From IMG/VR virus record IMGVR_UViG_3300045988_159685: a stretch of 64,000 nt of DNA. One strand, 5' to 3'. Both the position numbers and the translations under genes were made by a program. Source of the DNA: a virus. Positions 11,371 to 56,823 of this stretch are shown in pieces. Every line of letters starts with the position of its first letter. Positions within the stretch are counted from its first letter, which is position 1. A model generated the notes under the pieces. The model was not told the DNA's origin and did no database searches. It worked only from the letters and a program-made list of their open reading frames with translations.

Positions 11371-11377
11371 ATCTTAT

Positions 11378-13834: not shown

Positions 13835-13836
13835 AA

Positions 13837-14070: not shown

Positions 14071-14408
14071 ACCTTGCCTCTTTCAAACTCAATAACACCG
14101 CCATCGGCATCAACGACAACTGGGCGAATTGATAGGATATTTCTTGTGAATAAAAACGCACAGGCTAATGGCACGGCAATAACCGCACTCTCGGGCATAG
14201 CTATAGCCATAACGCCCATAGCAAAGCCGAGAACTTTCTGCATAATCCACAACACTTTGGCTGCTTTTCTTTCAAGTCTGCGGCTTTTATAGCTTTCTAT
14301 GCGCTTTTTAAGCTCTCTTTCTTCTTTGTCACGTTCTTCTGCGTGTTTCATAGATCTGATTAACTTTGTCAGGTCGTATGTATTATGTACGTTTTCAAAA
14401 GCGTCCAT
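14067..14408 (-). CDS. membrane protein (113 aa)
   Basis: RBS GGAGGTG. Charged N-terminal helix followed by two hydrophobic segments (VLGFAMGVMAIAM.., VIAVPLACAFLF). Confidence 0.55.
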   Translation of the reverse strand: MDAFENVHNTYDLTKLIRSMKHAEERDKEERELKKRIESYKSRRLERKAAKVLWIMQKVLGFAMGVMAIAMPESAVIAVPLACAFLFTRNILSIRPVVVDADGGVIEFERGKV

Positions 14409-14481
14409 AAAAACACCTCCATTTTAAAATAATAATAATGATTTTCTGATTACGCCTGAAAATCACCATAAAATCTGGCGT

Positions 14482-14557
14482 TGGTGCGACTTATGGGGCT
14501 TGAACCCATGACCTCCGCATTAAAAGTGCGTTGCTCTACTAACTGAGCTAAAGCCGC
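14482..14557 (-). tRNA. tRNA-Lys (anticodon UUU), copy 2
   Basis: GCGGCTT..AAGTCGC-A-CCA. Anticodon loop CTTTTAA with stem ACGCA/TGCGG (one A-G mismatch). T-arm ATGGG-TTCAAGC-CCCAT. Confidence 0.75.
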
Positions 14558-14650
14558 AAGCGCAGGCATCACACTACATTCCCATATGGTGGGATAAGCA
14601 CTGTACCTGCTATGCCAATTTTCTTTTTGTGTAGCATTGGCAAACTACAC

Positions 14651-14737
14651 TGGTGCCGCTGACGAGACTTGAACTCGTAAGGATTTTACTCCGAGGGTTT
14701 TTAAGACCCTTGTGTATGCCTATTCCACCACAGCGGC
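14651..14737 (-). tRNA. tRNA-Leu (anticodon UAA), type II with long variable arm
   Basis: GCCGCTG..CAGCGGC-A-CCA. Anticodon stem AGGGT/ACCCT, loop CTTAAAA, variable arm CGGAGTAAAATCCTT, T-arm ACGAG-TTCAAGT-CTCGT. Confidence 0.85.
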
Positions 14738-14847
14738 TTGTCTTGCCCACAACCCACAGAAGGCAAGTAATGTACGGCTCATCCGTACTTCCCTACGTAT
14801 TCAGCGACTGATGCCACCGATGCGCGTCTAAGGACTGCGACGTCCTT

Positions 14848-14922
14848 TGGTGACTCGTGCAGGATTCAAACCTACGACTCCGCTCTGAGAAAGCGGTATC
14901 TTAATCACTTGACCAACGAGCC
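14848..14922 (-). tRNA. tRNA-Glu-like, anticodon CUC (copy C), T-loop TTTGAAT
   Basis: GGCTCGT..ACGAGTC-A-CCA. Anticodon stem CCGCT/AGCGG, loop TTCTCAG. T at the position-56 equivalent instead of C. Confidence 0.55.
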
Positions 14923-24628: not shown

Positions 24629-24704
24629 TGCGGAGTAGAGAAAAGGTATCTCGCTTGTTTCATAGGCAAGAGATTATTGGTTCGAGTCCAATCTCACGCA
24701 ACCA
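24629..24704 (+). tRNA. tRNA-Met/Ile2-like (anticodon CAU) with a bulged A in the acceptor stem
   Basis: Hand fold: TGCGGAG-TA-GAGA-AAAGGTA-TCTC-G-CTTGT-TTCATAG-GCAAG-AGATT-ATTGG-TTCGAGT-CCAAT-CTC(A)CGCA-A-CCA. All arms are canonical except the extra A on the 3' acceptor strand. Confidence 0.5.
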
Positions 24705-24774: not shown

Positions 24775-25791
24775 ATGTCAAAGGTATCAAAACTTCCGCC
24801 TGTTACGCAGGAAGAGTGGAACAAAGTAAACGACTTTAACAAATTTATATTTGAAGATTTTATAACGAACAGCACAGAGCTATCGCCTAAAACAAAAATT
24901 GCTTATGAGTCAAATTTAAAAATTTGGTTTATTTGGGTCAAAGATAATCTTAATAACAAATCTCAGATCGACATTAAACCTTTAGACTTTAAGCGTTTTC
25001 AAAACTGGATGGTCAACCGTGGTTGTTCAAGTGCAGATTGTGCAAACAAAAGAGCGGCAATTAGCTCGCTTAATAATTACATAGATGTTTACTATAGGGA
25101 CGATTATCCACAATTTCGCAATTTTATTAATAAGAGTATAGCACGACCGCCAAAGGCTTTTGTAAATGAGAAGCAACCACTGACGAAAGAGGAATTTGCA
25201 AATCTTATTTCTGTTCTCGAAAAACGTGGTGATTGGCAAAAGGTTGCCTATCTTAAATTTACATTAGATACAGGATGTCGCCGTGCTGAGAGCATACAAG
25301 TGAAAAAGGATTTTGTAAACATCAAGCCGACCATAAAACACAAAACCCATATTGACGAAAATGGTAACGAAGTAACAAAAGAGATTAAGTATTATGTTAC
25401 CCCTACTATTCGTTGTAAAGGAAAGGGTACGGTTGGTAAAGAAAGAAAGTTTAAATTCTCACAGGATACAATGGATGCATTTAAGAAGTGGATTGAAGTT
25501 AGAGGTGAAGACGATTGCCCAGACATGTTTATTTCTAAATATGCCGGAAAAGTAAAAGGCATAGCAGAGAACACGTTAAACAATTGGGCTACTCATGTAT
25601 TTACACCTATCGTCGGCAGACGCTTTCATCCGCATCTTCTAAGAGAGTCTAAGGCAACTCAGCTTGCAGTCGAAGAAGGAAAAGACATTTCTGTAATCCA
25701 AAGTCTATTAGGCCACGAGTCATCAGAAACTACACAAATTTATATAATCCGTGACGAAACCGATGACCTCGACGAGTTGTTTGAAGAGTAG
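24775..25791 (+). CDS. tyrosine recombinase/integrase (XerC/D-like, with SAM-like N-domain)
   Basis: TGCRRAESIQV (Arg I), HPHLLRES (HxxR), LGHESSETTQIY (H..Y). RBS AAAGGAGA. Confidence 0.8.
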   Translation: MSKVSKLPPVTQEEWNKVNDFNKFIFEDFITNSTELSPKTKIAYESNLKIWFIWVKDNLNNKSQIDIKPLDFKRFQNWMVNRGCSSADCANKRAAISSLNNYIDVYYRDDYPQFRNFINKSIARPPKAFVNEKQPLTKEEFANLISVLEKRGDWQKVAYLKFTLDTGCRRAESIQVKKDFVNIKPTIKHKTHIDENGNEVTKEIKYYVTPTIRCKGKGTVGKERKFKFSQDTMDAFKKWIEVRGEDDCPDMFISKYAGKVKGIAENTLNNWATHVFTPIVGRRFHPHLLRESKATQLAVEEGKDISVIQSLLGHESSETTQIYIIRDETDDLDELFEE

Positions 25792-39343: not shown

Positions 39344-42300
39344 ATGGCAGGATATATAGGCGACGTAAATATTAGGGTCAATGCCGACCTTAATACTAAG
39401 GATATGGAAAGGGTCTTGAAAGATTTCACCCCTACCATTGAAATAGAGCCCAAGGCAGATAAGTTAAAGAAATCACTTGAAAATGAATTAACCAAAGCTT
39501 TTGCAAAAGTTAAAGACCTAAAAGACGAATTTGATAATTCTACTTTTAAAGCAGACAAAACCAATTACAACTTTTCGCAGTTCTTTGATACCTTTAATAG
39601 CAGTCAAATTTATGGTAAGGGTAACAAAGATAAAATACAGAACAGGCTTAACTACTATATAAAGAAAGCAAATGAAATGCACGATGTTGCTCAAAGGCTT
39701 TCTAATAGCAAACTCGAGTTTGACACCTCTTTATCGTCACTTGGTTTAAGTTATAGTGACATTGGGCTATCTGAAGATCAACAGCAGTGGTTAAAATCCG
39801 TTGAAAAATCTTACGAGACTGCGGCACAAAAAGCGCATAAAGTAATAAATGGAGTTATATCTCGATATAACAAAGAACATCCTGATGATAGCTTGCAGAT
39901 AAATCCATTAAATGCGAACTTCGGCGATGTATCAAAACTATATACAACAAGTTTACAAACGTCTATAAAAACAGCATTTAAAAGAATTAATGCTACGGGA
40001 TTAGATCCAAGTAAACTTAGTACAAAAGATATAGACTTACAAACCAAGAGACTATCTGATGTTATTCCGCTAATGCAGACACTTAACAAATTCTCCAAAA
40101 AAGATATGGTTAAGTATAGATTTGATGGGGATACAGATAAAAGTGTTGTTACCATTGCCCGTGTAAAAGAACTATTAAAAGACTTTGAGTATTATTGGAA
40201 AGAAGCAACGGTTTCTCAAAAAGAGCAAGTCAAAGATAAACAGTTAAGCAAATCTGAAGAAAAAGAAGTTTCTAATGAGGTTTATGTTGAACAGCTTGAA
40301 AAGCGTGTATCTGAATTAAAGCAGGAAAACTTAAAGCTTGAAAATGACAAAAAGAGGTTTGCGGCAAAAAAAGAAGATACTGGTGGCAAATCATCTGATG
40401 ATAATAAAAGCCTCAAATTAGAAAATGAAAAATTAAAAAAAGAAAATTCTGAATTGTCTGAGTTTATGGCTAACATACAAGATAAACAACAAGACCCAGG
40501 TGATGATTCTGGCAACGGCAGTCCCTCAGAGGGTGGCGAAGTTAGCGAGGGAGGCGTATCACTTTCAAGGTTTGAGGCAATCAAAGGGCTGCTCAAATCC
40601 CGTGACATTTCTTTAAACAACAAAAAGAAACAAGTTGAAGTTTTAAACAAGAAAATTAAAGAGCTTGAAAAAAAAGCCAAGTCTAGCGGCAAAGCTACGC
40701 TAAAAGATAGCGACGGCAACACTGGTATATCTGGAGTTGATGGCGAAAATTCTGGCGATAAAACAGACGAGGAAAGCACAAAACTAAAAGCCAATCTCGA
40801 GGCTCTTAAGAGACAATATGAAAAGTCAAAATCAGATTATGAGAACAACAAAAAGCTTTCCGAAGAGCTTAAAGGCTTAATTGATAAAGCCGAACAATCA
40901 CAACAAGGTGGCTCGGGCAATATCTCAAAAGAAGCCTTAGAACAGTTCAAGACTGAGATTGAAAAAGTATGTTCTTCAATTAAAATAGGCGAATTCGATT
41001 ACGCTGAAGCTTTAGAAAAACTTAGGCAAGCATTAAAAAATGAAGCAGTAGATATTAATGTCGGCAACTTGAAAACTGCAAGTAAACCAACAGCCGATTC
41101 TGCTTCAAGCCCGCAAAAGAGAGTTACAAGAAAACCGTCGGCTAAAAGCGATAAATCAGATAATACCACTGAGGATGACCAATATTGGAAAGAAAAGTTT
41201 AAAGCCAATATTGAAGAACGCACAAGTGAACAATCTCCACAGGAACTGAAAGACTACTTCAAGGCCGTGTCTCAAATATCACAAGAAATTGATAAGTCGA
41301 TGAAGTCAATCAATAGCACAGCTGATAGCTTGATAAAAAAATCTGGTACAAAATCACAGCAATCACAAAGTAAGAACTTGGGTTTATCTAGTGAATATTC
41401 GGCAATACAATCTCAGGCGGCTAGCATTCAAGAGCAGATTGAAAGTATAAAGCAAGAACTGTTAAATCCTGATGCTGACACTAACTCAATAACATTCTTC
41501 AAAAATATAGACGAACAAGTTAAAGAGCTTTATGCAGACTTAGAAGTTATTCAAGATCAATATAATGATACTACTAAGAAATTCGACGAATTAAATAATG
41601 CTTATAAAACCGATACAGCGGCACAACGAATTAAGAAGAAAGCTTCTACGTTATTGAATCAATATGTATCGTTTAAAGATATAAATAGTAACGCCTTCAA
41701 ACAGAATGATGCTTTGTCAGCACAATGGGACGAATGGTATAACAAGCTTAAAAATCCAGATTTGCTTGATGCGAAAGAAATTGATAAAGCCGATGCAAAG
41801 CTCAAGGAAATGCGTGCTACCGTAAAAGATCTAGGAATTGGTGGTAAAACAGCTGGCGAATTGATTTCTAATATGTTCAAAAAGTACGGCGGCTGGGCAA
41901 TCGTTACTAGGTCAATGGTATATGTAAAATCTGTACTGAGAGATATATACCAAGCAACCAAAGATGTAGATACCTCAATGGTCAATCTTAAAAAGGTTAG
42001 TAACGAAACGGCGGCATCATATGATGCGTTTCTAACAAATGCGGCAAAAAAGTCAAAAGAACTTGGTGTTTCAATAAGTGACTTGGTGGATTCGACTTCT
42101 GAGTTCTCAAGACTCGGCTATAACCTCAAAGACGCAACCAAGCTCGGCGAACTTGCAACAATGTATTCCAATGTTGCCGAAGATTTAAGTGTAACCGACG
42201 CCGCCTCTTCAATCATTTCGACAATGAAGGCGTATGATATTGCCGCAGACGATGCACAAGAAATCGTAGATAAGTTTAACTATGTAGGCAACAACTTTGC

Positions 42301-43084
42301 CATTTCTTCCACTGGACTTGGTGACAGCTTACAACGTTCTGCTTCTGCTTTGGTTGCCGCAGGAAACAGCCTTGACGAAACCATCGCACTTACAACGGCG
42401 GGCAATGCTATTGTTCAAGACCCTGAAAAAATGGGCACTGTTCTTAAGACGGCTTCGGCTAGATTAAGAGGAGCAACAGCCGAACTTGAGGAAATGGGCG
42501 AAGAAACAGACGATGTAGCAAACGGCACAGCAAAGCTACGTCAGGAGATACTTGCTCTTTCTGGCGTTGACATCATGAAGAATGATAATACCTTTAAAGG
42601 CACATATCAAATTCTTGACGAGATATCGAAAGTATATGGCAGCCTTTCAGACGTAAATCAGGCGGCACTGCTTGAACAAATTGGTGGCAAAAACGGCATT
42701 AACGTAATCGCCGCAGTATTATCCAATTTTGACGAAGCAAGAGAAGTCATGAGTACCATTGGTGGTTCCAAGGGTTCGGCTTCTGAAGAAATGGAAAAAT
42801 CACTTGACTCTATAACAGGTAAGCTTGGAAAACTTAGTGCTATATTCCAAGATATATCCACAAAGGCGTTAGAGTCAGACACAGTTAAATCGTTCTTAGA
42901 TATTCTTATCGGTATAGGTAATGCAATATCTAAGCTTATACCTAGCCTTAATACTGTGCTTAAAATTGGCGGAGCAATTGGTGCGGGAGCATTAGGTGCA
43001 AAAGGTATTAATATAGGTGCGGGTGAACCCATAAAACACAGGGTTCCACTGAGTATGCCCGCAAGCATAATGGTAATACCATAA
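39344..43084 (+). CDS. tail tape measure protein, part 1 (coiled-coil + TP901-type core + hydrophobic Gly/Ala tail)
   Basis: 1246 aa with very long K/E-rich coiled coil. The core region KKVSNETAASYDAF..SEFSRLGYNLKDAT..MYSNVAEDL..SSTGLGDSLQRSASALVAAGNS..TTAGNAIVQDPEKMGTVLKTASARLRG is typical of TP901-family TMPs. Confidence 0.8.
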   Translation: MAGYIGDVNIRVNADLNTKDMERVLKDFTPTIEIEPKADKLKKSLENELTKAFAKVKDLKDEFDNSTFKADKTNYNFSQFFDTFNSSQIYGKGNKDKIQNRLNYYIKKANEMHDVAQRLSNSKLEFDTSLSSLGLSYSDIGLSEDQQQWLKSVEKSYETAAQKAHKVINGVISRYNKEHPDDSLQINPLNANFGDVSKLYTTSLQTSIKTAFKRINATGLDPSKLSTKDIDLQTKRLSDVIPLMQTLNKFSKKDMVKYRFDGDTDKSVVTIARVKELLKDFEYYWKEATVSQKEQVKDKQLSKSEEKEVSNEVYVEQLEKRVSELKQENLKLENDKKRFAAKKEDTGGKSSDDNKSLKLENEKLKKENSELSEFMANIQDKQQDPGDDSGNGSPSEGGEVSEGGVSLSRFEAIKGLLKSRDISLNNKKKQVEVLNKKIKELEKKAKSSGKATLKDSDGNTGISGVDGENSGDKTDEESTKLKANLEALKRQYEKSKSDYENNKKLSEELKGLIDKAEQSQQGGSGNISKEALEQFKTEIEKVCSSIKIGEFDYAEALEKLRQALKNEAVDINVGNLKTASKPTADSASSPQKRVTRKPSAKSDKSDNTTEDDQYWKEKFKANIEERTSEQSPQELKDYFKAVSQISQEIDKSMKSINSTADSLIKKSGTKSQQSQSKNLGLSSEYSAIQSQAASIQEQIESIKQELLNPDADTNSITFFKNIDEQVKELYADLEVIQDQYNDTTKKFDELNNAYKTDTAAQRIKKKASTLLNQYVSFKDINSNAFKQNDALSAQWDEWYNKLKNPDLLDAKEIDKADAKLKEMRATVKDLGIGGKTAGELISNMFKKYGGWAIVTRSMVYVKSVLRDIYQATKDVDTSMVNLKKVSNETAASYDAFLTNAAKKSKELGVSISDLVDSTSEFSRLGYNLKDATKLGELATMYSNVAEDLSVTDAASSIISTMKAYDIAADDAQEIVDKFNYVGNNFAISSTGLGDSLQRSASALVAAGNSLDETIALTTAGNAIVQDPEKMGTVLKTASARLRGATAELEEMGEETDDVANGTAKLRQEILALSGVDIMKNDNTFKGTYQILDEISKVYGSLSDVNQAALLEQIGGKNGINVIAAVLSNFDEAREVMSTIGGSKGSASEEMEKSLDSITGKLGKLSAIFQDISTKALESDTVKSFLDILIGIGNAISKLIPSLNTVLKIGGAIGAGALGAKGINIGAGEPIKHRVPLSMPASIMVIP

Positions 43085-43380
43085 TCGAGGTATTATTATT
43101 ATGACAGGCAAAAAAGTATAAATTGACTACTTAGTAGTAACGGGTTTGATAATTCCCGTTCGGGGATGGTAATATTCAATTCTATCACACTTTTTTGAAT
43201 ATGAGAGTATCCGCATCCAAACCGATCGGCGTAAGTTTGTCGCATAATACATAATCGGCTTAACGATCGGCAGGTTCAGAGACTATAATTGCTTATTGGT
43301 GTTCTGCGATAGTGAACACTGGTTATTGGATAGTCCACGGTGTAGTTGTCGGATAGACGGCAATAAAAATTATAAAACTG

Positions 43381-43409
43381 TTGACTTCTGTAATATTATG
43401 TGATATAAT
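43381..43409 (+). promoter_or_regulatory. consensus sigma70-type promoter of the plus-strand moron unit
   Basis: TTGACT, 17-nt spacer, TATAAT, with upstream TGTGA. Confidence 0.65.
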
Positions 43410-43439
43410 GGAATAAAAATATTATAGGAGTTGTTAATT

Positions 43440-43625
43440 ATGTCTAAAGAAAATAACAAAGAAAATCAAAATAAGAATATCAACGAGAGCGTTTCACATG
43501 AACCAATAGTGGAAATCAATGTTAGAAGGAATTATTCGTATGTTCCAATCGACAGCGATATTAGCGAAAGACCACCTATTCCTACTGTTGATATTGATAA
43601 GAATAAAAAGGAGAATGACGGTTGA
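43440..43625 (+). CDS. small acidic/Asn-rich protein (61 aa)
   Basis: ATG 43440 follows TAGGAG. The stop overlaps the TTG start of the next ORF (TTGA). Confidence 0.45.
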   Translation: MSKENNKENQNKNINESVSHEPIVEINVRRNYSYVPIDSDISERPPIPTVDIDKNKKENDG

Positions 43626-44287
43626 CCGAAATTATTTCATACTTACCAAATATAATTATTTATCTAGTCTTGGGCTTTGTTTTTATTAAAGTCTTTAGAT
43701 TTGTTTATATAGAAGAAAGCCCAAATGATAGTCAACATATACTTACCGAATCTCTCATATATGGTTTTATTCTCCAAAATATCTACTCGGCTTTTCCAAT
43801 TAGTATTAACACTTATATTGACATAATAGGAATGGTTTTGTCTACAGTAATAATAGCATATTTTCTTGCTAAATTTATATATAGTAAACTATTTAGCAAA
43901 ATACTTGCTAAATTAAAAATACAACAAACGCCGATTAAAGATTTTTGGATTGATATAACACATTCAAAAGAGCGAACATATATAACCGTTTATGATAAAG
44001 AGTTCGATCGAGTTATAAATGGAAGATTTGCTAGAGCTGAAACATTTAATAAAAGACCACTCATACAGCTATCGGAATATATTATAAAAAATACACGGGG
44101 CGATATAATATTCGATATGTCTCTTAACACTGCCGACACTATTGTTATTGATACGTCTAAATACCCCGAAATCATGTTATCACATCCACAACCAAAAGAT
44201 AAAAAGAAATCTGAAGAATCACAGTCTAAACACAACCCAATAAAGTCAATATTAAACAAAATAAAAACTAAATTTCATCATGACTGA
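43622..44287 (+). CDS. membrane protein (3 N-terminal TM segments + ~120-aa soluble C-domain), function unknown
   Basis: TTG start coupled to the upstream stop. Hydrophobic segments IIIYLVLGFVFIKVF, LIYGFILQNIYSAF and IIGMVLSTVIIAYFLA. Confidence 0.55.
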   Translation: MTEIISYLPNIIIYLVLGFVFIKVFRFVYIEESPNDSQHILTESLIYGFILQNIYSAFPISINTYIDIIGMVLSTVIIAYFLAKFIYSKLFSKILAKLKIQQTPIKDFWIDITHSKERTYITVYDKEFDRVINGRFARAETFNKRPLIQLSEYIIKNTRGDIIFDMSLNTADTIVIDTSKYPEIMLSHPQPKDKKKSEESQSKHNPIKSILNKIKTKFHHD

Positions 44288-44315
44288 AAAAGCTCCGAGT
44301 TTCCTCGGAGCTTTT
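44287..44315. terminator. bidirectional rho-independent terminator between convergent moron units
   Basis: AAAAA-AGCTCCGAG-TTTC-CTCGGAGCT-TTTT. 9-bp perfect stem with A-run and T-run flanks. Confidence 0.75.
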
Positions 44316-44316
44316 G

Positions 44317-44922
44317 TTATAGAAAGAGTTTTATTTTCCAAATGGATATATCGTTTAATCGTTTATATCCGTCGTCTTTTAATTGCTTGTTAAGGGCAAG
44401 CTTTACATATGGCATATCTTCGGATTCGCATATATGTGATGCAATCGTATAATCAATATCTTTATCTACGGCTTCGTCATTGTATGAGCAATCAAATTCT
44501 GCTATATTAATTTGATGCTTTAACAAATCACAATGAGACAGTTTGTCCAAAGTGCCGTAATAACTACATCTTATATTGGGGTCGATCTCCTCTTCGTCAA
44601 TGTCCTTACTATTAAGCGTTCGGGCATTTACCGTAAGATACTTTCCAACTCGCAGGTTGATATCAACATTGATACGCTTTTCTCCATCGTCGAATGTAAT
44701 ATCTTTTCTAAATGCACTAACATTTGAAATGTCCACTTCTTTGTCGAGGTCTTTTTCAATCTTCTGAATAAGAAGTAATACAAATCGTTCATCATCACTT
44801 AGAATTACCTTCTTAAGTTGAGGCTTAAAAAATACTAACGAAGTAATCGAAGCTATGATAAGACAAAATATTATAATGAGCACAATAAACAATTTTTTAT
44901 GTTTTAAAAACAATCTTTTCAT
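44317..44922 (-). CDS. signal-anchored (N-terminal TM) protein, paralog of 44943-45512
   Basis: ATG 44922 follows AGGTGAGG. N-terminus MKRLFLKHKKLFIVLIIIFCLIIASITSLVFF. C-terminus DISIWKIKLFL. Confidence 0.6.
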   Translation of the reverse strand: MKRLFLKHKKLFIVLIIIFCLIIASITSLVFFKPQLKKVILSDDERFVLLLIQKIEKDLDKEVDISNVSAFRKDITFDDGEKRINVDINLRVGKYLTVNARTLNSKDIDEEEIDPNIRCSYYGTLDKLSHCDLLKHQINIAEFDCSYNDEAVDKDIDYTIASHICESEDMPYVKLALNKQLKDDGYKRLNDISIWKIKLFL

Positions 44923-44942
44923 TTTTACCTCACCTATCAGCA

Positions 44943-45512
44943 TCAGGAAAATAACTTAATTTTCCAAAGGGAGAAATCTGTTATTTCCTCGCAATCATCA
45001 TCAAGACGACGTTTGACACCACTTTTTACATGTTCATCAATATTGTCAACTTGGGCATAGCCGACTTCATCACCATTTATATCTTTCTTATTTGGTAAAT
45101 CGTACTGCTCTATGATATCTTGAGAACCCCAATAAAAATGACCAACATAAAGAGAAAAACTACCATTATAAATATCTTCTATGGCCTGTGATTCAGAAAT
45201 ACTTACATGTCGTATGAAAGAAATTTCTAATCCGTCATCTGTAATGATATACAAATATGTTCGAGAGTTCAACCAGTCATCATTTGATTTTTCTGATTTT
45301 GTTTCAAGACATTTAATATCTTGAATAGATATATCTTTATCAGTTTCTTCCTTAACTGTGGCTACACAGTTGATTATAAACTTTTCATTATCATTCAAGA
45401 TATAACTTGCTATTTGTTTTTTAAACACCATAAAAGTAATAATCAGTAAAATTATTAGACCTACTATTAATAACAAAACAACTTTTATCTTTCGTAACTT
45501 TGCGTTCTTCAT
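44943..45512 (-). CDS. signal-anchored (N-terminal TM) protein, paralog of 44317-44922
   Basis: N-terminus MKNAKLRKIKVVLLLIVGLIILLIITFMVF. C-terminus DFSLWKIKLFS. Confidence 0.6.
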   Translation of the reverse strand: MKNAKLRKIKVVLLLIVGLIILLIITFMVFKKQIASYILNDNEKFIINCVATVKEETDKDISIQDIKCLETKSEKSNDDWLNSRTYLYIITDDGLEISFIRHVSISESQAIEDIYNGSFSLYVGHFYWGSQDIIEQYDLPNKKDINGDEVGYAQVDNIDEHVKSGVKRRLDDDCEEITDFSLWKIKLFS

Positions 45513-45545
45513 AAGTATTGCCCCTATCTGTTTTTTTATATTAAG

Positions 45546-45574
45546 ATTATATCACAGATTTTACCACTTGTCAA
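45546..45574 (-). promoter_or_regulatory. consensus sigma70-type promoter of the minus-strand moron unit
   Basis: The minus strand reads TTGACA, 17-nt spacer, TATAAT, with the same TGTGATATAAT as the 43381 promoter. Confidence 0.7.
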
Positions 45575-45653
45575 TAGATTTACACCGATACTCAAAAAAA
45601 TAAAGTCTATTCCAAGTGATATTAAGGATAATCTTTCTGGGTTAAAATCACAA

Positions 45654-48600
45654 TTGTCGCTGTTTACCACAGAAGAAGCTGAACAGCAATTGAACGATTT
45701 TATTGATAAAGTCAAAGTTGGCGGCATGAGTGTCAAAGATTATTTCAATAATCCCGTCAATAGTGGAAAAACAATTTTAAAGGGTTATGTGCGTGAAGTA
45801 GATGAAGCCTCTATGAGTGTAGAAGGTTTCACTCGTTACGGAAAAGAACTGACGAGTCAATTTGATAAAATGAATACCAAGGGTGGCATTGCCTCACTCA
45901 TTTTTAAAGACATAGGTTCTATGGCTCTCAAAGCCTTACCAACATTAATCGTTACTGGTATTGGGGTTGCCATTGATTATTTTGTCAATAAAGCCGAACG
46001 AGCAAAAGAAAAAGCCGATGAACTTAGTGAAGAATTAAATAATTCATTAAGTAGCTACAATGACAGTTTGTCACAGGTATCTGGGTATGAAAAGGAATTT
46101 AACAAGCTTGCTAAAGGTGTTGATAACTTTGGAAATAATCTTTCATTGACCAATGACGAATATGACCGTTACAAAGACCTGTCAAACGACATCGCAAAAA
46201 TCAATCCTAGTTTAATAAAAGGATACGACGACGAAGGCAATGCTATCATAAACAAAAATAACGCCATAAGAGATACTATCAGCTTATTAAAAGAACAGCG
46301 AAAATTAGATATACTAAAAATGTTATCAGAAGATAACATAGAGGCTGTATCTGACGGATTAGATGCTAAGATTTCTGATACAAGAAAAGAAATGAACAGT
46401 CTGGCAACAAGATTTATTAAATATCCAGATAACATAAAAAGTGCAATTGAGAATTTCGACACAATAGCTGATGGTTTAGGTGACAATTTTTCTAACGAAT
46501 ATAGTGAGATATTAGGAGCCTTTGACAATTACAACAAAGTCGGCGACAAATATAAATTTAAAACCTACTATGAAAATCAAGATGAAGTTCATAACCTTGT
46601 ACAAAAACTACTTAGCTACAAAACTGATAATGAAAGCTTGTCAAAATCACTTGAACAGTATCAAAAAGAGTTGTCAGATTCTTACGACCAATTGCAAAAA
46701 GCATTAAACAACACAGATAATGTCAACCTCTACAAGCAAATTGACAGTGAAATGCAAAGTTATACAAAAACGTATGATACATATTTGCAGGCATATCTTA
46801 CTACTTTGGACGGATATGATGAACTTACAAGTGGCGAGCAGAACATTCTTTCCTCGTTAGTGTCAAACTTTGAATTAGATGTAGAAAGTAATACCAAAGA
46901 CTTTGACGAGCAATATGCCGACGAAGTGCAAAAGATCAATTCATTCTATGCTAATTTGAAAAATGGAGTAGATAATCATGGCGTACCGCTTTCTGTTTCT
47001 TTGGATATACTAACAAATTTGGATACAACACAAACCGTTTCAGAATATGAAAAGCAAATGGAAACTGCACTAAAAAATATTGCTAATTCCGACTTTGCAA
47101 AAAACCAAGGTCTTTCAATCGACGATATCAAAGTCATGCTTGGTTTCTCATTTGAGACAAACGATAACGAGATAGAGGATGGGCTTACAAACAAGATTGA
47201 GAATATTGCCACTCGTGTTGTGAATCGGATACCGTCGTTGGCTGGCAACCAAAATGGTCAAGCAATTATTGAAGGCTTGCTTAAAAATCTTACCCCAGAT
47301 AACATTGACACTTTAATGGATACCAGCCTTGACAAAATAAATTCATGGCAAGATGTTCTCGATCTCTTAAATGCAAAAACCACATTTAGCCTTGCTGACT
47401 ACTCCGAGGATGTTGACAACGTTCAAAGCAAAATTGCCGCACTTGCTTCTGCGTATAAGGAAATTCAAGACGGCACTTTTGAAGTTGGTAGTAGTGGATG
47501 GGAACTCGTTAAAAGTTATGGGGAATTTCTTCCATACCTTGACGACACAAATGGCGGCTTTGAAGAACTCGGTAAGAAAATCAAAGAAGCAATGGGTATT
47601 GCTCCAAACGACCTGATTAAGCAACTTTCTCAACTTAAAGGTTTGAGTGACGCCGATCAAAAATCTGTAAATAATCTTATCAAAGTCCTCTATAAAATGA
47701 AAGATGTTAGCCTTTCAAATCTTACTTCAGACGGATTACTGACCGCCGAGAAGAATCAAGTACAAGCAATAATTGATAAGATAAATGATAAGAAAGACAA
47801 AGAACAGGAATACCTCGATACGCTTCAAGAAGAGGAAGATACTTTAAATGATATCATTGACAAATATCAGACCGCTGGTGATACTGCTATTGATTATATT
47901 GAAAAAGAAATCAGTAGTCTTGAGGATTCTCGTGACGATGTAGAGTCATATTACGACGACCTTATTGATAAACTCAAAGAGGAAAATGACGAACGTGATA
48001 GAGCCATTGAGTTGCAGGAAAAGCAAGACGCTGTAGCTAATGCAAAAAAGAAAAAGGTTGCTATCTATAGCGAAGCAAGTAGCTGGCATTTAGAAACCAA
48101 CTCCGACGAGGTTGAAAAGGCACAACAGGAACTTGATTCACTACAAAACGAAATAGCTATTGACAATCTTGAAAAAGAGAAAGAGGCTGCTATGCAACCT
48201 TATACCGATCAAATTGAGGCATTTGAAAAGTATAAGCAAGCATGGAGCGATGCTATGAGTGCCTATACAAACAACCAGAATGAAATGATTGCGCAACAAA
48301 TTTTAGGTATAGATTGGCAGGGTAAACTTCACAATCAGGATATCGGTATTCTTAACAAATATCAAACTGATTATAGCGGTTATCAAACTAAACTCAAAGA
48401 TAATGTTCAAAAAGAGAAAGAGATTATTCAAAACCGCATTGACCAATATGCAAAAGAAGCAGATGAGTGGGAGAAGTATCTCAAACAATTTGATACATTC
48501 GTTTCCGATTTATCTGACCAAGACGTTAAATACTTTGAAGAACTTAAACTCAAAACACTTAATGAAAAGAGTACATACCAAGAGCGACTTGATGCTTTGC

Positions 48601-49232
48601 GTGAATTTAAAGCCGATTATATTCAGCTATCAGATGACCTGGCACAATATGAGGGCACCTCTATAAAGAAAGCTTTGTCTGGTAGCGGCGTATATGCTGT
48701 CGAAAAAGATAACGCAATTCTTGGTGCATACACCACCAAAAAGGAAGCCGACAAAGCCATGTATAAGTTTGCGGGGCAAATGATAAGTGAAAAGGTTTCA
48801 ATGCTCGGTGGCTTGAGTAATATCAGTGTAACCAAGCTTGCGGAACTACAAAAGGAGATACGCTCAAAATTCAAGGTAAAGCAGTATGCGACGGGTGGAG
48901 TTAATAGCTACACGGGAACGGCTATGCTACACGGAACACCATATAAGTCTGAGGTAATCTTTAATTCTTCAGACGCCAAGAAACTCTATGACATTGTACA
49001 CAATACTCGCAATGTTGCAAGCGTTGTTGGTAAGACTATAGGTGACAATCTTGTAAGTGGTACGCAGGCGGCTGGATCAATGTTCACAACAAATGATACC
49101 ACTAATGGTGATACCACAATTACATTTAGAATTGGCGAAATTCATACTACCGACGGCACAACATTCTTACAGCAAATGAATGACTATTTGAAGCAAGCAG
49201 ACCGTGACCGCATGATAGGTAGAAACAGATAA
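45654..49232 (+). CDS. tape-measure-like protein, part 2 (hydrophobic N-region, long coiled-coil, TMP-type C-terminus)
   Basis: 1192-aa ORF ending in KQYATGGVNSYTGTAMLHGTPYKSEVIFNS, which resembles TMP C-terminal blocks. No RBS at the 5' end. The frame is open from 45498, the first canonical start is TTG 45654 and the first ATG is 45726. Confidence 0.6.
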   Translation: MSLFTTEEAEQQLNDFIDKVKVGGMSVKDYFNNPVNSGKTILKGYVREVDEASMSVEGFTRYGKELTSQFDKMNTKGGIASLIFKDIGSMALKALPTLIVTGIGVAIDYFVNKAERAKEKADELSEELNNSLSSYNDSLSQVSGYEKEFNKLAKGVDNFGNNLSLTNDEYDRYKDLSNDIAKINPSLIKGYDDEGNAIINKNNAIRDTISLLKEQRKLDILKMLSEDNIEAVSDGLDAKISDTRKEMNSLATRFIKYPDNIKSAIENFDTIADGLGDNFSNEYSEILGAFDNYNKVGDKYKFKTYYENQDEVHNLVQKLLSYKTDNESLSKSLEQYQKELSDSYDQLQKALNNTDNVNLYKQIDSEMQSYTKTYDTYLQAYLTTLDGYDELTSGEQNILSSLVSNFELDVESNTKDFDEQYADEVQKINSFYANLKNGVDNHGVPLSVSLDILTNLDTTQTVSEYEKQMETALKNIANSDFAKNQGLSIDDIKVMLGFSFETNDNEIEDGLTNKIENIATRVVNRIPSLAGNQNGQAIIEGLLKNLTPDNIDTLMDTSLDKINSWQDVLDLLNAKTTFSLADYSEDVDNVQSKIAALASAYKEIQDGTFEVGSSGWELVKSYGEFLPYLDDTNGGFEELGKKIKEAMGIAPNDLIKQLSQLKGLSDADQKSVNNLIKVLYKMKDVSLSNLTSDGLLTAEKNQVQAIIDKINDKKDKEQEYLDTLQEEEDTLNDIIDKYQTAGDTAIDYIEKEISSLEDSRDDVESYYDDLIDKLKEENDERDRAIELQEKQDAVANAKKKKVAIYSEASSWHLETNSDEVEKAQQELDSLQNEIAIDNLEKEKEAAMQPYTDQIEAFEKYKQAWSDAMSAYTNNQNEMIAQQILGIDWQGKLHNQDIGILNKYQTDYSGYQTKLKDNVQKEKEIIQNRIDQYAKEADEWEKYLKQFDTFVSDLSDQDVKYFEELKLKTLNEKSTYQERLDALREFKADYIQLSDDLAQYEGTSIKKALSGSGVYAVEKDNAILGAYTTKKEADKAMYKFAGQMISEKVSMLGGLSNISVTKLAELQKEIRSKFKVKQYATGGVNSYTGTAMLHGTPYKSEVIFNSSDAKKLYDIVHNTRNVASVVGKTIGDNLVSGTQAAGSMFTTNDTTNGDTTITFRIGEIHTTDGTTFLQQMNDYLKQADRDRMIGRNR

Positions 49233-51245: not shown

Positions 51246-54200
51246 ATGGATTACTATAATAAAATAGATGAAGCGTATTTGACCGAATTACAGAATCCAA
51301 TGCGTAAATTAAAATTCAAGGTAGAAATTCTATCACACTATGAGGGTGCGATTGGACAAATTACAAACGACCTTTCCTCTGCCGAGGTTGGTTCAATATC
51401 AATTAATAAGGAGCAAGGCTGTCGCAGGTCTTGCTCTTTTACTATCATAGACCGCGATGAGAAGTATTTACCCCAGGTAGACAGTTGGTTTTGGTACAAT
51501 AGAAAGTTTAAACTTTTTATAGGCGTAGTTGTTTCAAATGATATATATTGGTTTCCACAAGGCGTATTCATTACAAAATCGGCAACAGCGCATGGCAAAG
51601 CATTAGCAATCGAAGGTATTGATAAATATGGTTTTCTAAATGGCGAATTAAATGCAAGAATGTGTTTAGTAGAATATCAAGCTAGTGTTACAAATTCTAA
51701 AAAAGGAACAAAAATTGCCGACCTTATTCGAGATACTTTGATGTTAGATTTAGGCAATAACATTCCGCTTGACCCCGTTGAACCTTTAATTGATCCAATC
51801 TTTTATGATGCAGAATTATATGACGATATCGTGGTTGACGAGGGCGGGTACCTTGGTGAAATATTCGATAAGTTAGCCGAAATGTATGGTGCTAATATCT
51901 ATTACGATGTCAACGGCAGGCTTAGAATGGAAAGGGTATTTAACTATAATCTTCCCTCTTGGTATAGGCATCTATCGCCACAAAGTAATCTGGGTGAAGT
52001 CGATATAGCTGAAACCGACATTGATGTTCAATATAATTATGACGGTGTAAACATTGTGACAGTTACTACGGATAACACTAACGGCGAGATATATTCCTAT
52101 ACAGCAAAAAATGAAAACCCACAGTCCCCAGTTTGTATAACCTCGGTAGGATATAAGGGATTGGACGGCGGTACTTATTATATAAGTCTTGGCGATACAA
52201 CGCTGGATAGTGGTGAAGAAAAATGTAGAATGCAAGCGGAGTATATACTGTTACAGAATACCTGTATGGGAACTTCGGTAAGTTTTAATTATCCAAGTCT
52301 CCCCCACCTTGACGTTGACAACACAATTGAACTTACAAACGAATATTACAAATTTAAAAAGCAACTTTTTCTTATTCAATCATTAACCATTCCTCTTAGC
52401 AATGGAGAGATGACTATTGAAGCCACTAATCTGCAATGGTTACCATTTGATACGGACTGTATTTCGATTTACTGTGAAACTTTAAGCGATACAGTGGCAA
52501 TATCTTATAACACGAATGGTGGCAAGGACAAAGATGGCAATACTATCACTTATAAAAGTATTAACCAAGCTCCTAATAAACAAATCGTTTTACAAGGTGG
52601 GGATATGTATAACGAGAATAAATTGTTCGCATGGACGGATAGTCAAGGCAATAAATACAATTATGGCGACGTGTATACTATACCAAATAACAACACAACA
52701 TTGACAGCTCAATGGATAGCAGGAAATGAAGTTACAGTTACCAATACATTGCCGACAGATAGTACGGTAGAATTTCAATCTATGTCACCGTCACGTTGTT
52801 TAATACGTTATGACGACAATGAAGTAGTTAGGCGTAATACAAACGCAATTTCAACATTTAAAAAGAATTATTCTTTGGGTACGCACGATACAACCATCGT
52901 GTCTGAGAGTGATGATTTAACCAACTTTGATAATGCTTTTGATAAAGGAACAACTACAAAGATAGATTGTTCCAAAGTAAAAGCTACCTACCTCACTTCA
53001 CCTATGGGAAACGGATTTGAGAATATAACAGACTTTGTTTTCCCTGCTAATCTTGCGAACATTTCGACCAGTGAGGGTGTGTTGTCAGGCTGTAAAAAAC
53101 TTGCCAATATTGCATTTCCTACAGTATATTGTGATATTTCAAGCCCCGAATCGTTTCTTGCTAATAGTACATTCGTCAATGGTTTGGAACTACCTTACAC
53201 CTTGAATTTCGTACCAATGGTTTCAGTTGATGGGCAAACAGGTATCGAAGAAATAAAGCGAAATGAGATACTAAAAGGAAGTCATGTTATTGGAAACTTA
53301 ACTATCAAAGCGGCAACTACGAATAAATGTGTAGTGTATGTAAATAAAGAAACAACAAGTTTAGTCATTTATCCTGCGACAGTGCAGGGAAGATTTTATC
53401 TTATGGGCAAAGGTATTGACGGAGATTTATCTGGACTTCAAAGTATACAAATTGGGCGATCTACTAACATTAACGATACCGATGGTTTCGCAAGTAATAC
53501 ATCGGCAAACATAAATCTGAGTTTGGACTTTCAATCGGGTAATTGTACTACCAAAATACCTAAAAACGCTTTTAATGGCTATAGTGGTAATACGATTAAT
53601 GTTGTAATTTATGGTAATGTGACCGACAGCAATGGTATTACGCTTGAAAGCGGATCGTTCTGCAATATGCCTAATATGACAAAATTACCAATGACAAATA
53701 GTGCGAGCTTAAAAGTTGTACCTGAGAACTGCATGAATAACTTATCTTCTTTAATATCGGCGGCTACAGGTTATGTAGTTGACGTTGAGGGTTGTAATAA
53801 TATGTCCAACCTGACAACTTTAAGAATTGAAAGTTCTTGTGAGAAGGTAAATGGGTTTAATAATTGCCCAAAGCTTAAAAGTTTGTCATTTATGAGTGAC
53901 GGAAAGGTAACTGAGATAGGTGGACTTAATGGTAATGCGATAACAACGTTTTATATTCCTAATACTGCCATCTCTGTGTCCGGTGTAAATAATTGTCCGT
54001 CACTGACAACCGTTTCTATAGGTAAGTCATTGGAGAGTTTTACAGGCTTTAATAATTGTCCTCTGTTAAACACCTTTAATGTTAATAGTGCCAATACTCA
54101 TTTTCGGGTAGTCAATAATTGTTTATATCAAGATAATAAGTTTTGCCGTGCTCCTGCATCCTCGTGGTACGGCAGTAATGTTGTTGTGGCAAATGGAACT

Positions 54201-54578
54201 ACAGAAATAATGAGCAACGCATTTCAACAGAGTTCTATGACAAGTATTTCGTTTCCCGAAAGTTTGTTTACGATTAATCAAAATGCCATTAAGAGCACAA
54301 GTATAGATCAAGTTATTTTTCATAGCGAATATGATGAAAGTTTAGGAAAATATACCGATACGTCTATAAATGATTTAAGTGCATTTGACAATGTAACTGT
54401 TGGTATAATGTTTGGTTATGGCAACGGAATAACAGATGTAACAGATAGTAGGTGTTTACCTATTGTTAAATATTGCATAGAGCATAATATCAAATTTGTT
54501 GATATGAACGAAACAAATACTAACGCTCGTGGAGCTATTGGAATAAGCGGTAATGCAGAATTGGACGGTGATAATTAA
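51246..54578 (+). CDS. putative tail-associated protein (Tal-like N-terminus) with C-terminal BspA-type leucine-rich repeats
   Basis: 1110 aa. The C-terminal ~550 aa contain repeated F..C..L..I.(F/I)P..(V/L)..I units (e.g. GCKKLANIAFPTVY, IMSNAFQQSSMTSISFPESLFTINQNAI, NNCPKLKSLSF, NNCPSLTTVSI, NNCPLLNTFNV). Confidence 0.5.
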   Translation: MDYYNKIDEAYLTELQNPMRKLKFKVEILSHYEGAIGQITNDLSSAEVGSISINKEQGCRRSCSFTIIDRDEKYLPQVDSWFWYNRKFKLFIGVVVSNDIYWFPQGVFITKSATAHGKALAIEGIDKYGFLNGELNARMCLVEYQASVTNSKKGTKIADLIRDTLMLDLGNNIPLDPVEPLIDPIFYDAELYDDIVVDEGGYLGEIFDKLAEMYGANIYYDVNGRLRMERVFNYNLPSWYRHLSPQSNLGEVDIAETDIDVQYNYDGVNIVTVTTDNTNGEIYSYTAKNENPQSPVCITSVGYKGLDGGTYYISLGDTTLDSGEEKCRMQAEYILLQNTCMGTSVSFNYPSLPHLDVDNTIELTNEYYKFKKQLFLIQSLTIPLSNGEMTIEATNLQWLPFDTDCISIYCETLSDTVAISYNTNGGKDKDGNTITYKSINQAPNKQIVLQGGDMYNENKLFAWTDSQGNKYNYGDVYTIPNNNTTLTAQWIAGNEVTVTNTLPTDSTVEFQSMSPSRCLIRYDDNEVVRRNTNAISTFKKNYSLGTHDTTIVSESDDLTNFDNAFDKGTTTKIDCSKVKATYLTSPMGNGFENITDFVFPANLANISTSEGVLSGCKKLANIAFPTVYCDISSPESFLANSTFVNGLELPYTLNFVPMVSVDGQTGIEEIKRNEILKGSHVIGNLTIKAATTNKCVVYVNKETTSLVIYPATVQGRFYLMGKGIDGDLSGLQSIQIGRSTNINDTDGFASNTSANINLSLDFQSGNCTTKIPKNAFNGYSGNTINVVIYGNVTDSNGITLESGSFCNMPNMTKLPMTNSASLKVVPENCMNNLSSLISAATGYVVDVEGCNNMSNLTTLRIESSCEKVNGFNNCPKLKSLSFMSDGKVTEIGGLNGNAITTFYIPNTAISVSGVNNCPSLTTVSIGKSLESFTGFNNCPLLNTFNVNSANTHFRVVNNCLYQDNKFCRAPASSWYGSNVVVANGTTEIMSNAFQQSSMTSISFPESLFTINQNAIKSTSIDQVIFHSEYDESLGKYTDTSINDLSAFDNVTVGIMFGYGNGITDVTDSRCLPIVKYCIEHNIKFVDMNETNTNARGAIGISGNAELDGDN

Positions 54579-55288: not shown

Positions 55289-55302
55289 AGGCGGTGTACA
55301 GA

Positions 55303-56823
55303 ATGTCTAAAATGAATAAGCTGATTAAGGAAAGTCAAGATAATAAAAAAACACTTGGTTATACCTATGGAACAGTTAAAAGCTACGACTCTACAAATTG
55401 TACAGCCATTGTTTCGCTATTAGAGTATAATGGTGCTGAAAAATCTTTTCTGAATAAATCAGGTGAGATTTTAAGCATGGGAGACAGTGTGTGGATCTAT
55501 TTCCGTGGTGGTGGTATAAACGCTGGCTACATTGCTATTAGGAATGGCAAACCTATACCTCTAGGAAGTCAAAATTCTAGCGTAGGACGATTTGTTGAAT
55601 ACGTTGATAGTGGTGGTAGTAGACACATCTCAGAAAAGTTTAATTATTATGGCAGTTCTTATTTTTATACTATAGCCCCTGATGGAACAGAACAGATTAC
55701 TATTTATCTTGAAAATATTGCCCATGGCGATTACAACCATCTTGAAGGTCAAGCAAACCATTGTTACGAATATAGTTATGACAGCAATAATTATATTGAT
55801 TTTTCAGAAATGAAAACTAACAGTATGTTACATATGTTACCCTATGCTCGTGGAAATAGCAGTTTAAATTCCTTAACAGGCTTTAATAATACTAGCGTTG
55901 GTGGATTTTCTAATCACGTCAGTGGTATGTGGAATACGTCTGAATATAGTGTGGCGGTTGAGTGTAGCGGTGCAAAAAATACTGTTTTCAATTCTCGTGA
56001 TACATATGTTAATGGTATGAATAATATGCTAGAGGGTGTAGCTGATAGTATTGTAGTTGGTACATTGAATACTGTTAAGGGTGATAAAACTAAAGACCAA
56101 ATGGCAAAATGTAATGCCGTGTTTGGATATGATAACGAAATTATAAATTATGATGATTGTTTCGTTGCAGGTTCACATAATCGTGCCACAGCGGATAACC
56201 AAACTGTTATAGGTGTCAATGCAAGACAAACTTATAAAAGCTCGGAAAACGCTGATATACTATTTAATATAGGAAATGGTTCTGCACTTGAAAATTCTGC
56301 AATGCAAGTAGATTTTTCTGGCAATGTTTATGCTGGCGGTGCGTACAAAACTATTGGTGCTGACTATGCCGAATATTTTGAATGGCTTGACGGAAATGTT
56401 GATAATCAAGATAGGATCGGATTATTCGTTACGCTTGACGGTGATAAAATCAAGCTTGCAAATAAAGACGATTATATCCTTGGTGTTATATCAGCCAACC
56501 CATCTATTGTTGGTAACTCTGCTGAATTAGATTGGCATGATAAATATAAAACAGATGTTTATGGACGGTTGATTTATGATGAGTCACACAATCCTATAGT
56601 CAGTGAAAACTATAACGATACGCTTGAATATGTTCCTCGTGGGGCTCGAAAAGAGTATAGCAAAGTTGGCTTGTTAGGACAGTTAGTAGTTCAAGATGAT
56701 GGAACGTGCGAGGTCAACGGATATTGTACGGCTAGTGTGAATGGCGTGGCAACCAAGTCAGATAGTGGTTATAGGGTTATCAAACGTATTGATGAAACAC
56801 ATATAAAAATAATACTTAAATAG
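55303..56823 (+). CDS. tail fibre/spike protein with Peptidase_G2-type intramolecular chaperone C-domain
   Basis: GADYAEYFEWLDGNVDNQDRIGLFVTLDGDKIKLAN..DYILGVISANPSIVGNS matches my recollection of the phi29 gp12-type IMC autocleavage domain. ATG 55303. Confidence 0.45.
   Translation: MSKMNKLIKESQDNKKTLGYTYGTVKSYDSTNCTAIVSLLEYNGAEKSFLNKSGEILSMGDSVWIYFRGGGINAGYIAIRNGKPIPLGSQNSSVGRFVEYVDSGGSRHISEKFNYYGSSYFYTIAPDGTEQITIYLENIAHGDYNHLEGQANHCYEYSYDSNNYIDFSEMKTNSMLHMLPYARGNSSLNSLTGFNNTSVGGFSNHVSGMWNTSEYSVAVECSGAKNTVFNSRDTYVNGMNNMLEGVADSIVVGTLNTVKGDKTKDQMAKCNAVFGYDNEIINYDDCFVAGSHNRATADNQTVIGVNARQTYKSSENADILFNIGNGSALENSAMQVDFSGNVYAGGAYKTIGADYAEYFEWLDGNVDNQDRIGLFVTLDGDKIKLANKDDYILGVISANPSIVGNSAELDWHDKYKTDVYGRLIYDESHNPIVSENYNDTLEYVPRGARKEYSKVGLLGQLVVQDDGTCEVNGYCTASVNGVATKSDSGYRVIKRIDETHIKIILK

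Follow-up and report, generated by a model that had tools for sequence, protein, structure and literature searches.

A predicted group I intron with a promoter-bearing cassette of membrane-protein genes inside the tape-measure gene of an SPbeta-like phage

The interrupted tape-measure gene

The window analysed here is a stretch of 64,000 nucleotides of viral DNA (IMG/VR record IMGVR_UViG_3300045988_159685), in which two long plus-strand open reading frames (ORFs) of the tail module are separated by a cassette of four small genes in two convergent units. The first (ORF1, 39344-43084) matches Pfam PhageMin_Tail at residues 903-1115 (E 7.5e-24), the second (ORF2, 45654-49232) encodes a coiled-coil protein, and the two are halves of one tape-measure protein (TMP) gene. 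Brevibacillus phage Sundance, the closest of the isolated relatives, encodes its TMP in one piece (2,528 aa), and residues 704-1091 of that protein align with the end of ORF1; a 601-aa protein of an SPbeta-like prophage (P0014) aligns unbroken over the junction (33% identity, 417 aa, E 1e-56), covering the C-terminal 180 aa of ORF1 and the N-terminal 220 aa of ORF2. The TTG annotated as the start of ORF2 (45654) has no Shine-Dalgarno (SD) sequence and is not a plausible start; all four cargo genes have ribosome-binding sites. The original prediction had placed the cassette inside the TMP gene, and this location stands; the plain insertion breaking that gene gives way to an element at 43025-45587 which is very probably a group I intron, or a recent derivative of one, carrying accessory cargo, and across which the exon frames join. 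The exons and the predicted splicing elements, all on the plus strand, are as follows.

39344..43024, plus strand: TMP exon 1, 1,227 codons, ending ...GINIGAG at a codon boundary
43025..45587, plus strand: predicted group I intron, 2,563 nt, with the core 5', the cargo in a 3' peripheral loop and the terminal G at 45587
45588..49232, plus strand: TMP exon 2, 1,214 codons, starting with AUACUC (the P10 partner) and encoding ILKKIKSIPSD...
43019-43024 (GCGGGU) with 43057-43062 (GCCCGC), plus strand: P1, with the wobble U43024.G43057 at the 5' splice site
43025-43046, plus strand: L1 hairpin, GAACCC/GGGUUC
43051-43056, plus strand: P10 guide strand GAGUAU, perfectly complementary to AUACUC (45588-45593), the bases next to G45587
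3' splice site, plus strand: block of 19 nt, TTTACACCG/ATACTCAAAA (the slash marks the splice site)

Joining the exons gives 2,441 aa with no internal stop and keeps the frame of ORF2. The predicted ligation brings ...GGTGCGGGT to ATACTCAAAA..., so that the spliced-junction 40-mer would read ...ATTAATATAGGTGCGGGT/ATACTCAAAAAAATAAAGTC..., and beyond the 5' splice site the heptamer G+ATACTC is found just once, where it keeps the frame. As annotated, ORF1 continues to a stop at 43084 within the intron, and this 19-codon tail differs in frame between lineages. The span of the element, first given as 43085-45653 from the ORF1 stop to the ORF2 TTG, is accordingly corrected to run from splice site to splice site; the approximately 300 nt 5' of the plus-strand promoter of the cassette and the 13 nt past its minus-strand promoter become parts of the intron, and 43025-43372 reads as a structured RNA core and not as spacer.

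Structure of the predicted RNA core

The TMP relatives retrieved from IMG/VR form three groups: the near-identical loci L004-L008 and L108; the L003 lineage (L003 and L130); and group B (L009-L014). A search of IMG/VR with the pattern GGGTGAACC..GGGTT returned mostly chance matches, L108 and L130 being the only real ones. The core elements assigned in the window, again on the plus strand, are listed below.

43066..43103, plus strand: P2 hairpin, about 15 bp
43209-43215, plus strand: Q-like element AUCCGCA, kept in the window and L003 lineages
43222-43228 with 43264-43270, plus strand: P6, with compensatory pairs by RNAalifold
within 43273..43363, plus strand: R element GGUUCAGAGACUAUAAU, resembling an Rfam consensus stretch
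43281-43286 with 43330-43335, plus strand: P7
43289-43294, plus strand: 3' strand of P3, tentative
43295-43304 with 43314-43323, plus strand: P8
within 43273..43363, plus strand: S element GGAUAGUCC, resembling an Rfam consensus stretch
43338-43344 (CGGUGUA) with 45581-45587 (UACACCG), plus strand: P9.0-like long-range helix, a 7-nt perfect complement to the intron end
43346-43352 with 43357-43363, plus strand: P9 hairpin

The minimum free energy fold of 43040-43440 reaches -106.4 kcal/mol (z = -3.78), and none of 100 shuffled sequences folded as well. The stretches GGUUCAGAGACUAUAAU and GGAUAGUCC are what we take to be the classical R and S elements. Since CGGUGUA is complementary to the last seven bases of the intron, it would form a helix that closes the 2.2-kb loop, and group B has an analogous closing helix of 7-8 bp in which one end pair covaries (CGAGGAGA/UCUCCUCG versus UGAGGAGA/UCUCCUCA). 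In the group-B element at the same site (L011) the Rfam model Intron_gpI is matched over its full length with 27.1 bits (E 7e-5). The only perfect partner of the Q-like AUCCGCA is UGCGGG at 43018-43023, which lies at the 5' splice site and is also a P1 strand; this pairing may be an alternative that competes with P1, or a coincidence.

A MAFFT alignment of the core across lineages was dropped because it misplaced the 3' strand of P7 (P7'). The covariance model R1, built on the 3' core half of the window and L003 lineages, gave a weak plus-strand match at 54029-54142, inside a gene for a leucine-rich repeat (LRR) protein, which is probably due to chance (17 bits, E 0.22). Searches of the INPHARED phages with the region and the core (megablast and blastn) returned no match, and the GTDB genomes held neither a TMP relative nor an exact core match. 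Other kinds of intervening element were tried and rejected: an intein because of the stop codons, an insert out of frame and genes on both strands; a group II intron because no Rfam domain was matched at the gathering score and there is no reverse transcriptase; and an IStron because neither TnpA nor TnpB is present.

Three lineages with different guides

The TMP proteins of the L003 lineage and of group B are 43% and 38-42% identical to that of the window, and the interruption follows the same Gly codon in all three lineages. Each has guide sequences of its own:

Window: P1 GCGGGU/GCCCGC; P10 GAGUAU/AUACUC
L003 lineage: P1 GCUGGGU/GCCCAGC; P10 GAUUGU/ACAAUC
Group B: P1 CGGGU/GCCC; P10 (AAA)GUUAAUAU/AUAUUAAC(UUU)

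The insertion in P1 of the L003 lineage is compensated on both strands, and in every lineage the P10 partner is preceded by G and the exon join is in frame. By a rough estimate, an in-frame heptamer or nonamer of this kind would turn up by chance within about 100 nt with a probability of about 2e-3 for the window, about 2e-3 for the L003 lineage and about 1e-4 for group B. When the window and L003 lineages are aligned (alignment A9), 95% of the cells of P7, P8 and P9 are paired, against 27-66% in slid controls, and seven pairs are doubly changed (two in P7, two in P8 and three in P9).

The closer relatives add to this picture. L004, L005, L006 and L007 repeat the 19-nt block at the 3' splice site letter for letter, in surroundings that are about 67% (L004, L005 and L007) or about 90% (L006) identical to the window, and P1, P10, the terminal G, P7 and the loop-closing helix stay intact and identical in L004-L007 while the cargo changes. 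L136, L138 and L139 likewise have an intact core. In two group-B loci (L010 and L012, at about 11500-11800) the P6 region of the core holds an extra ~370 nt; this moves the R/S half from ~11433 to ~11807, and therefore a second intron loop also accepts insertions.

The cargo and its transcription signals

The peripheral loop is occupied by the cassette, which it contains from end to end:

43381-43409, plus strand: promoter TTGACT-17-TATAAT with extended -10 (TG)
43440-43625, plus strand: 61-aa hydrophilic protein rich in Asn, Lys and Glu, AGGAG upstream
43622-44287, plus strand: 221-aa DUF6338-like protein, TTG start overlapping the preceding TGA stop, AAAGGAG upstream
44287-44315, both strands: bidirectional terminator
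44317-44922, minus strand: 201-aa single-pass 'SLWKIKLF' protein, SD GGTGAGG before ATG 44922 (208 aa if read from ATG 44943)
44943-45512, minus strand: 189-aa single-pass 'SLWKIKLF' protein
45574-45546, minus strand: promoter TTGACA-17-TATAAT with extended -10 (TG), 13 nt away from the 3' splice site

The promoters and the terminator found bear out a self-contained cassette that brings its own host-type transcription signals. Both promoters, described originally as perfect, are present; the minus-strand one matches the consensus at 12 of 12 positions and the plus-strand one at 11 of 12. They do share one -10 region (TGTGATATAAT), and in a scan of 38-52 kb they were the only strong promoters with an extended -10, the minus-strand one ranking first. 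Between the convergent units stands the bidirectional terminator as described, a hairpin AAAAAGCTCCGAG-TTTC-CTCGGAGCTTTT with a folding energy of -22.1 kcal/mol (z = -5.1; none of 200 shuffles as good); a simple terminator scan missed it, probably because A/T runs pair into the stem. The cassette fills the intron loop exactly: 9 nt separate the core from the start of the plus promoter, and 13 nt lie between the end of the minus promoter and the terminal G. Similar signals recur in relatives: a consensus promoter directly follows the core in L013 (11607-11635) and in L003 (5464-5492), the plus unit of L013 is followed by a terminator, and L004 carries a different sequence with the same promoter consensus at the place of the minus promoter. 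With a GC content of 28-33%, against 35-45% in the flanks, its own promoters and terminator and a presence that varies among relatives, the cassette shows the hallmarks of a moron.

The four ORFs, with their SD sequences, the TTGA overlap and the transmembrane (TM) segments, were found as originally described, and the structure models bear out the TM segments. The 61-aa protein is 100% conserved in L004 and L006 and was assigned to no family by Pfam, PHROGs or PADLOC. The absence of any recognisable family, claimed at first for all four proteins, holds for three of them; the 221-aa protein belongs to a large family (at least 543 representatives), and since a profile hidden Markov model of that family (144 members) matches cargo proteins of group B and of the L003 lineage (E 1e-16 to 1e-21), a DUF6338-like gene is common to all three lineages. 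By pairwise hhalign the 221-aa protein and its group-B counterpart are only weakly similar (probability 5%). The family resembles Pfam DUF6338 (PF19865), an uncharacterised family of integral membrane proteins, in length and in the layout of the N-terminal TM segments; five of 50 diverse relatives match that model (best E 1.7e-7), one of them (P0234) scoring 30.5 bits where the Pfam gathering threshold is 26.5 bits, while the window protein itself does not match it. Family members are also found outside introns, free-standing at phage accessory positions, and two distant ones match PADLOC PDC-M48A weakly (E 2e-4 to 7e-4). The AlphaFold2 (AF2) model of the window protein has helices at 2-29, 37-56 and 64-86 followed by six strands (120-187), which Foldseek relates to Sm/LSm proteins (probability 1.0, E 3e-3 to 0.1); a sequence search of the PDB with the family profile returned nothing.

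The two minus-strand proteins are indeed paralogous (23-25% identity, E 6.5e-10). For the 189-aa protein, AF2 predicts a TM helix, then a further helix and a four-stranded sheet (predicted local distance difference test, pLDDT, 80.9; predicted template modelling score, pTM, 0.74), and Foldseek found nothing below E 0.01 in PDB and BFVD. It has only 13 homologue clusters, on contigs of up to 582 kb. The 'SLWKIKLF' proteins are mosaics, with conserved ends (LNDNEKF at the N-terminus, EEITDFSLWKIKLFS at the C-terminus) and a variable middle.

As to the candidate exclusion or defence function proposed for the cassette, PADLOC (PADLOC-DB 2.0) matched none of the four window proteins. A likeness to Ltp/Sie2009 found no backing either, with no Pfam, PHROG or Foldseek match and no Cys at the lipobox position after the TM segments; what they have in common with such superinfection exclusion (Sie) proteins is only that they are small envelope proteins anchored at the N-terminus. 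A functional link between Sie-type cargo and its location inside the TMP gene stays a conjecture.

Exchange of the cargo among relatives

The proposal that the cassette is mobile among related phages was examined in the relatives, where it behaves as swappable accessory cargo whose content changes at the same site. The flanking DNA of the cargo-swapping prophages is 93-99.8% identical. Identity of 97-99.5% between the window and its relatives runs to 44383, just past the terminator, and then stops. The minus unit holds one 'SLWKIKLF' gene in L004, two in the window, three in L006 and L136 and four in L138, the encoded proteins being 22-37% identical to each other, and some loci have an extra TM protein of 132-133 aa. 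In L011 (12583-13642) a Panacea (SocA-like) antitoxin (PF13274, E 2.5e-14) and a 112-aa partner replace the DUF6338-like gene, and the cargo of L008 includes a gene for a MazF-like toxin. Cargo exchange appears to proceed by homologous recombination between the conserved flanks.

In L004 and L005 the replaced block reaches 1.4 kb into exon 2. In L004, L005 and L108 divergence extends over 44383-47016, taking in the minus unit, the 3' splice site and the initial 1.4 kb of exon 2, and therefore the cargo type and the adjoining TMP segment are inherited together. L008 (12490-21131) departs further from the common layout: its conserved core and plus unit are followed by genes for the MazF-like toxin and IS66-like transposases and by a 338-aa ORF, no TMP exon 2 was found within 10 kb, and the locus represents a large insertion or else a chimeric contig. 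In another SPbeta-like prophage (L135, 2925-13806) the TMP gene is cut at two other places, one gap holding a 337-aa ORF with a weak DUF723 match and the other, of about 4.9 kb, seven ORFs including SEC-C/Asp-protease-like and Bro-N/ANT ones; Rfam found no intron in this contig. Multi-gene inserts in TMP genes may thus be common among SPbeta-like phages.

Phage context and a proposed two-state locus

On the plus strand at 19807-22530 the window encodes a 907-aa protein (Pfam RdRP PF05183, E 2.7e-13) that is a YonO-like, single-chain, two-barrel RNA polymerase; it also encodes an integrase (24775-25791) and a large terminase, and its relatives have YomU and YomN genes. The prophage setting foreseen in the original prediction agrees with the finding of the same cargo protein at 297-308 kb of a 582-kb contig. 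Because of the YonO-like polymerase, the integrase, the terminase, the YomU/YomN relatives and this mid-contig cargo protein, we regard the phage as a temperate one of the SPbeta type; its host may be a Ruminococcus, to go by the only label available ('Ruminococcus sp.'). The late genes of SPbeta are transcribed by YonO as one long operon, with pauses ignored (PMC5467207), and the YonO-like polymerase probably sets the mode of late-gene transcription in the window as well.

It is tempting to speculate on how such a locus would work. A late transcript, probably made by the YonO-like polymerase, would read through the internal terminator; the 350-nt 5' core would fold, its internal guide pairing with the end of exon 1 (P1, with the U.G pair), the long-range helix would return the far 3' end to the core and P10 would align exon 2, so that splicing would join 43024 to 45588 and yield a single TMP of 2,441 aa. 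In a lysogen, host RNA polymerase would use the two consensus promoters and stop at the common terminator while the tail genes are not transcribed; upon induction, the phage polymerase would read through and the intron would be spliced out. The locus would thus have two states, and the intron would provide neutral space in an essential gene, where cargo could be inserted and swapped at no cost to the TMP; insertion in an essential gene would be tolerable because the cassette rides in a group I intron.

What the cargo does can be proposed with less assurance. Judging from protein features and expression signals, its most likely role would be an envelope function, expressed by the prophage, that excludes or aborts other phages, and it could quite plausibly act in exclusion or defence. 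Only tentatively would we put forward the combined view that introns in essential structural genes serve as landing pads for prophage-expressed conflict genes, that the cargo is an undescribed exclusion or abortive-infection system and that a two-polymerase switch governs the locus.

Elsewhere in the window there are eight tRNA genes, seven clustered on the minus strand among small ORFs (9851-14922) and one on the plus strand (24630-24700) just 5' of the integrase gene. Two plus-strand genes encode tail proteins, one with BspA-type LRRs (51246-54578; LRR_5, E 2.8e-11) and one with a Peptidase_G2 intramolecular-chaperone domain (55294-56823; E 6.2e-34), and both products are probably receptor-binding proteins.

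Alternative explanations

Several observations weigh against a spliced intron with conflict-gene cargo. The helices P3, P4 and P5 could be assigned only tentatively. Rfam RF00028, run on the whole window and, up to E <= 10, on core stretches of 183-431 nt, gave no intron match, the window falling short of the gathering threshold of 50 bits, and it found no match in the L003 lineage. Model R1 matched its own lineage only and not group B, and therefore does not bridge the lineages; the covariation rests on two or three lineages and few independent events. No homing endonuclease of the LAGLIDADG, GIY-YIG, HNH, His-Cys, PD-(D/E)xK or EDxHD type was found in the four window ORFs by Pfam and PHROGs, and a search of IMG/VR and JGI metagenomes with the spliced-junction 17-mer retrieved chance matches only and no intron-less allele. 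With neither a homing endonuclease nor an intron-less allele of the window lineage, mobility of the intron is not evident. A strong sense-strand terminator lies mid-intron, so that a full-length pre-mRNA needs read-through, putatively by the YonO-like polymerase. Finally, the cargo proteins resemble no known exclusion or defence protein by Pfam, PHROG, PADLOC or Foldseek.

Part of this would suit a plain moron between two independently translated tail genes, with a TMP made of two polypeptides and RNA-like features that are a remnant or a coincidence: Rfam reports no intron in the window, ORF1 has its own stop, ORF2 can be read from the TTG and the internal terminator would halt a transcript running through. 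We consider this quite unlikely, since no SD precedes TTG 45654, P1 and P10 define an exact frame join in three lineages with different guides, the 19-nt 3' splice block is identical in L004-L007 despite flanks of ~67% identity in L004, L005 and L007, and the TMP of relatives is continuous over the site. The lack of a homing endonuclease, the atypical P3-P5 region in which Rfam finds nothing, and the IS66-like and other insertions of L008 with no exon 2 within 10 kb might rather speak for a decayed intron that no longer splices, in a defective prophage or one that makes its TMP otherwise; such decay seems very improbable where the splice elements are intact in L004-L007 and the core in L136, L138 and L139 while the cargo changes, where the two exons retain long reading frames without stops (1,227 and 1,214 codons) and where several relatives are listed as viral contigs in IMG/VR.

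A further possibility accepts the group I intron and assigns the cargo to the lytic cycle or to the intron itself, for instance as a helper of lysis or injection that resembles a holin or a channel, or as a new homing or maturase factor. The DUF6338-like gene is kept in three lineages directly after the core promoter, its three TM segments and Sm-like beta domain recall small membrane channels (a weak Pfam match to the MscS TM region points the same way), and the cargo proteins match no defence family. Yet host-type promoters and an insulating terminator make up a pattern of prophage expression, the DUF6338-like family also occurs as free-standing accessory genes outside introns, L011 swaps this gene for the Panacea toxin-antitoxin pair, the number (1-4) and divergence (22-37% identity) of the 'SLWKIKLF' proteins fit conflict genes better than housekeeping ones, and membrane proteins are unlikely nucleases or maturases; we therefore hold this role to be unlikely. 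As a whole, a group I intron in the TMP gene with prophage-expressed envelope cargo is the explanation that we regard as probable, the splicing activity and the role of the cargo being read from sequence.

Relation to known systems

Phage late operons are compact, and the accepted place for accessory genes is between other genes. Here, a ribozyme would open the interior of an essential gene to cargo. If the predicted splicing is true, it would explain how a 2.2-kb cassette with two promoters can live inside a TMP gene, it would show that group I introns carry non-nuclease, multi-gene and rapidly exchanged cargo, including toxin-antitoxin modules in relatives, and it would make the split TMP genes of gut and SPbeta-like phages flags for sites where exclusion or defence genes of new kinds may be sought. 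Annotation is affected as well, as gene callers give two TMP fragments and Rfam misses the intron. No direct precedent was found in the literature searched for introns with moron, cargo or exclusion genes.

Among phage introns, those of T4 td, nrdB and nrdD (sunY) hold a single sense-strand homing-endonuclease ORF in a peripheral loop with its own expression signals, the ORF of sunY lying 3' of the core. The window element likewise has its ORFs in a peripheral loop with their own expression signals, but these are four genes on both strands without a nuclease, and their host-type promoters suit a prophage. Among accessory genes, lambda bor and lom are prophage morons, and classical morons lie between genes, whereas the cassette described here is inside one. 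With morons and Sie proteins such as Sie2009 and Ltp (PMC3952083) it shares a promoter and terminator of its own in the late region, a lower GC content, small membrane-anchored products and a presence that varies among relatives; no sequence or structural similarity to Sie2009 or Ltp was found, and its proteins have no lipobox.

IStrons are group I introns fused to an IS605 or IS607 element, as in CdISt1 and CboIStron (PMC10690162). Like the window element they occur in Clostridia and have the core 5', a long coding cargo and the 3' splice site at the far end, and splicing renders their insertion into a gene phenotypically silent (PMC10690162); 'uncharacterized accessory factors' have been mentioned with introns related to them (PMC10690162). 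The TnpA, TnpB, omega-RNA and transposon ends of IStrons are not in the window element (Pfam and PHROG returned nothing), whose cargo consists instead of membrane proteins in convergent, promoter-bearing units. Group I introns are also known in the TMP genes of Bacillus cereus-group prophages (TMP-IVS1/2/3; Tourasse and Kolsto 2008, PMC2504315). These, too, are self-splicing introns in the large TMP gene of a Firmicutes siphovirus prophage (PMC2504315), as predicted for the window; different introns fit the same site through P1 and P10, and some are without a complete homing endonuclease (PMC2504315). They are reported as short, with or without a homing endonuclease gene (PMC2504315), whereas the window intron holds ~2.2 kb of hypervariable non-nuclease genes with two promoters and a terminator. 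The nearest known systems are the TMP introns of B. cereus, which sit in the same host gene but are not reported with cargo of this kind, and the IStrons, which share the layout of a 5' core with 3' cargo.

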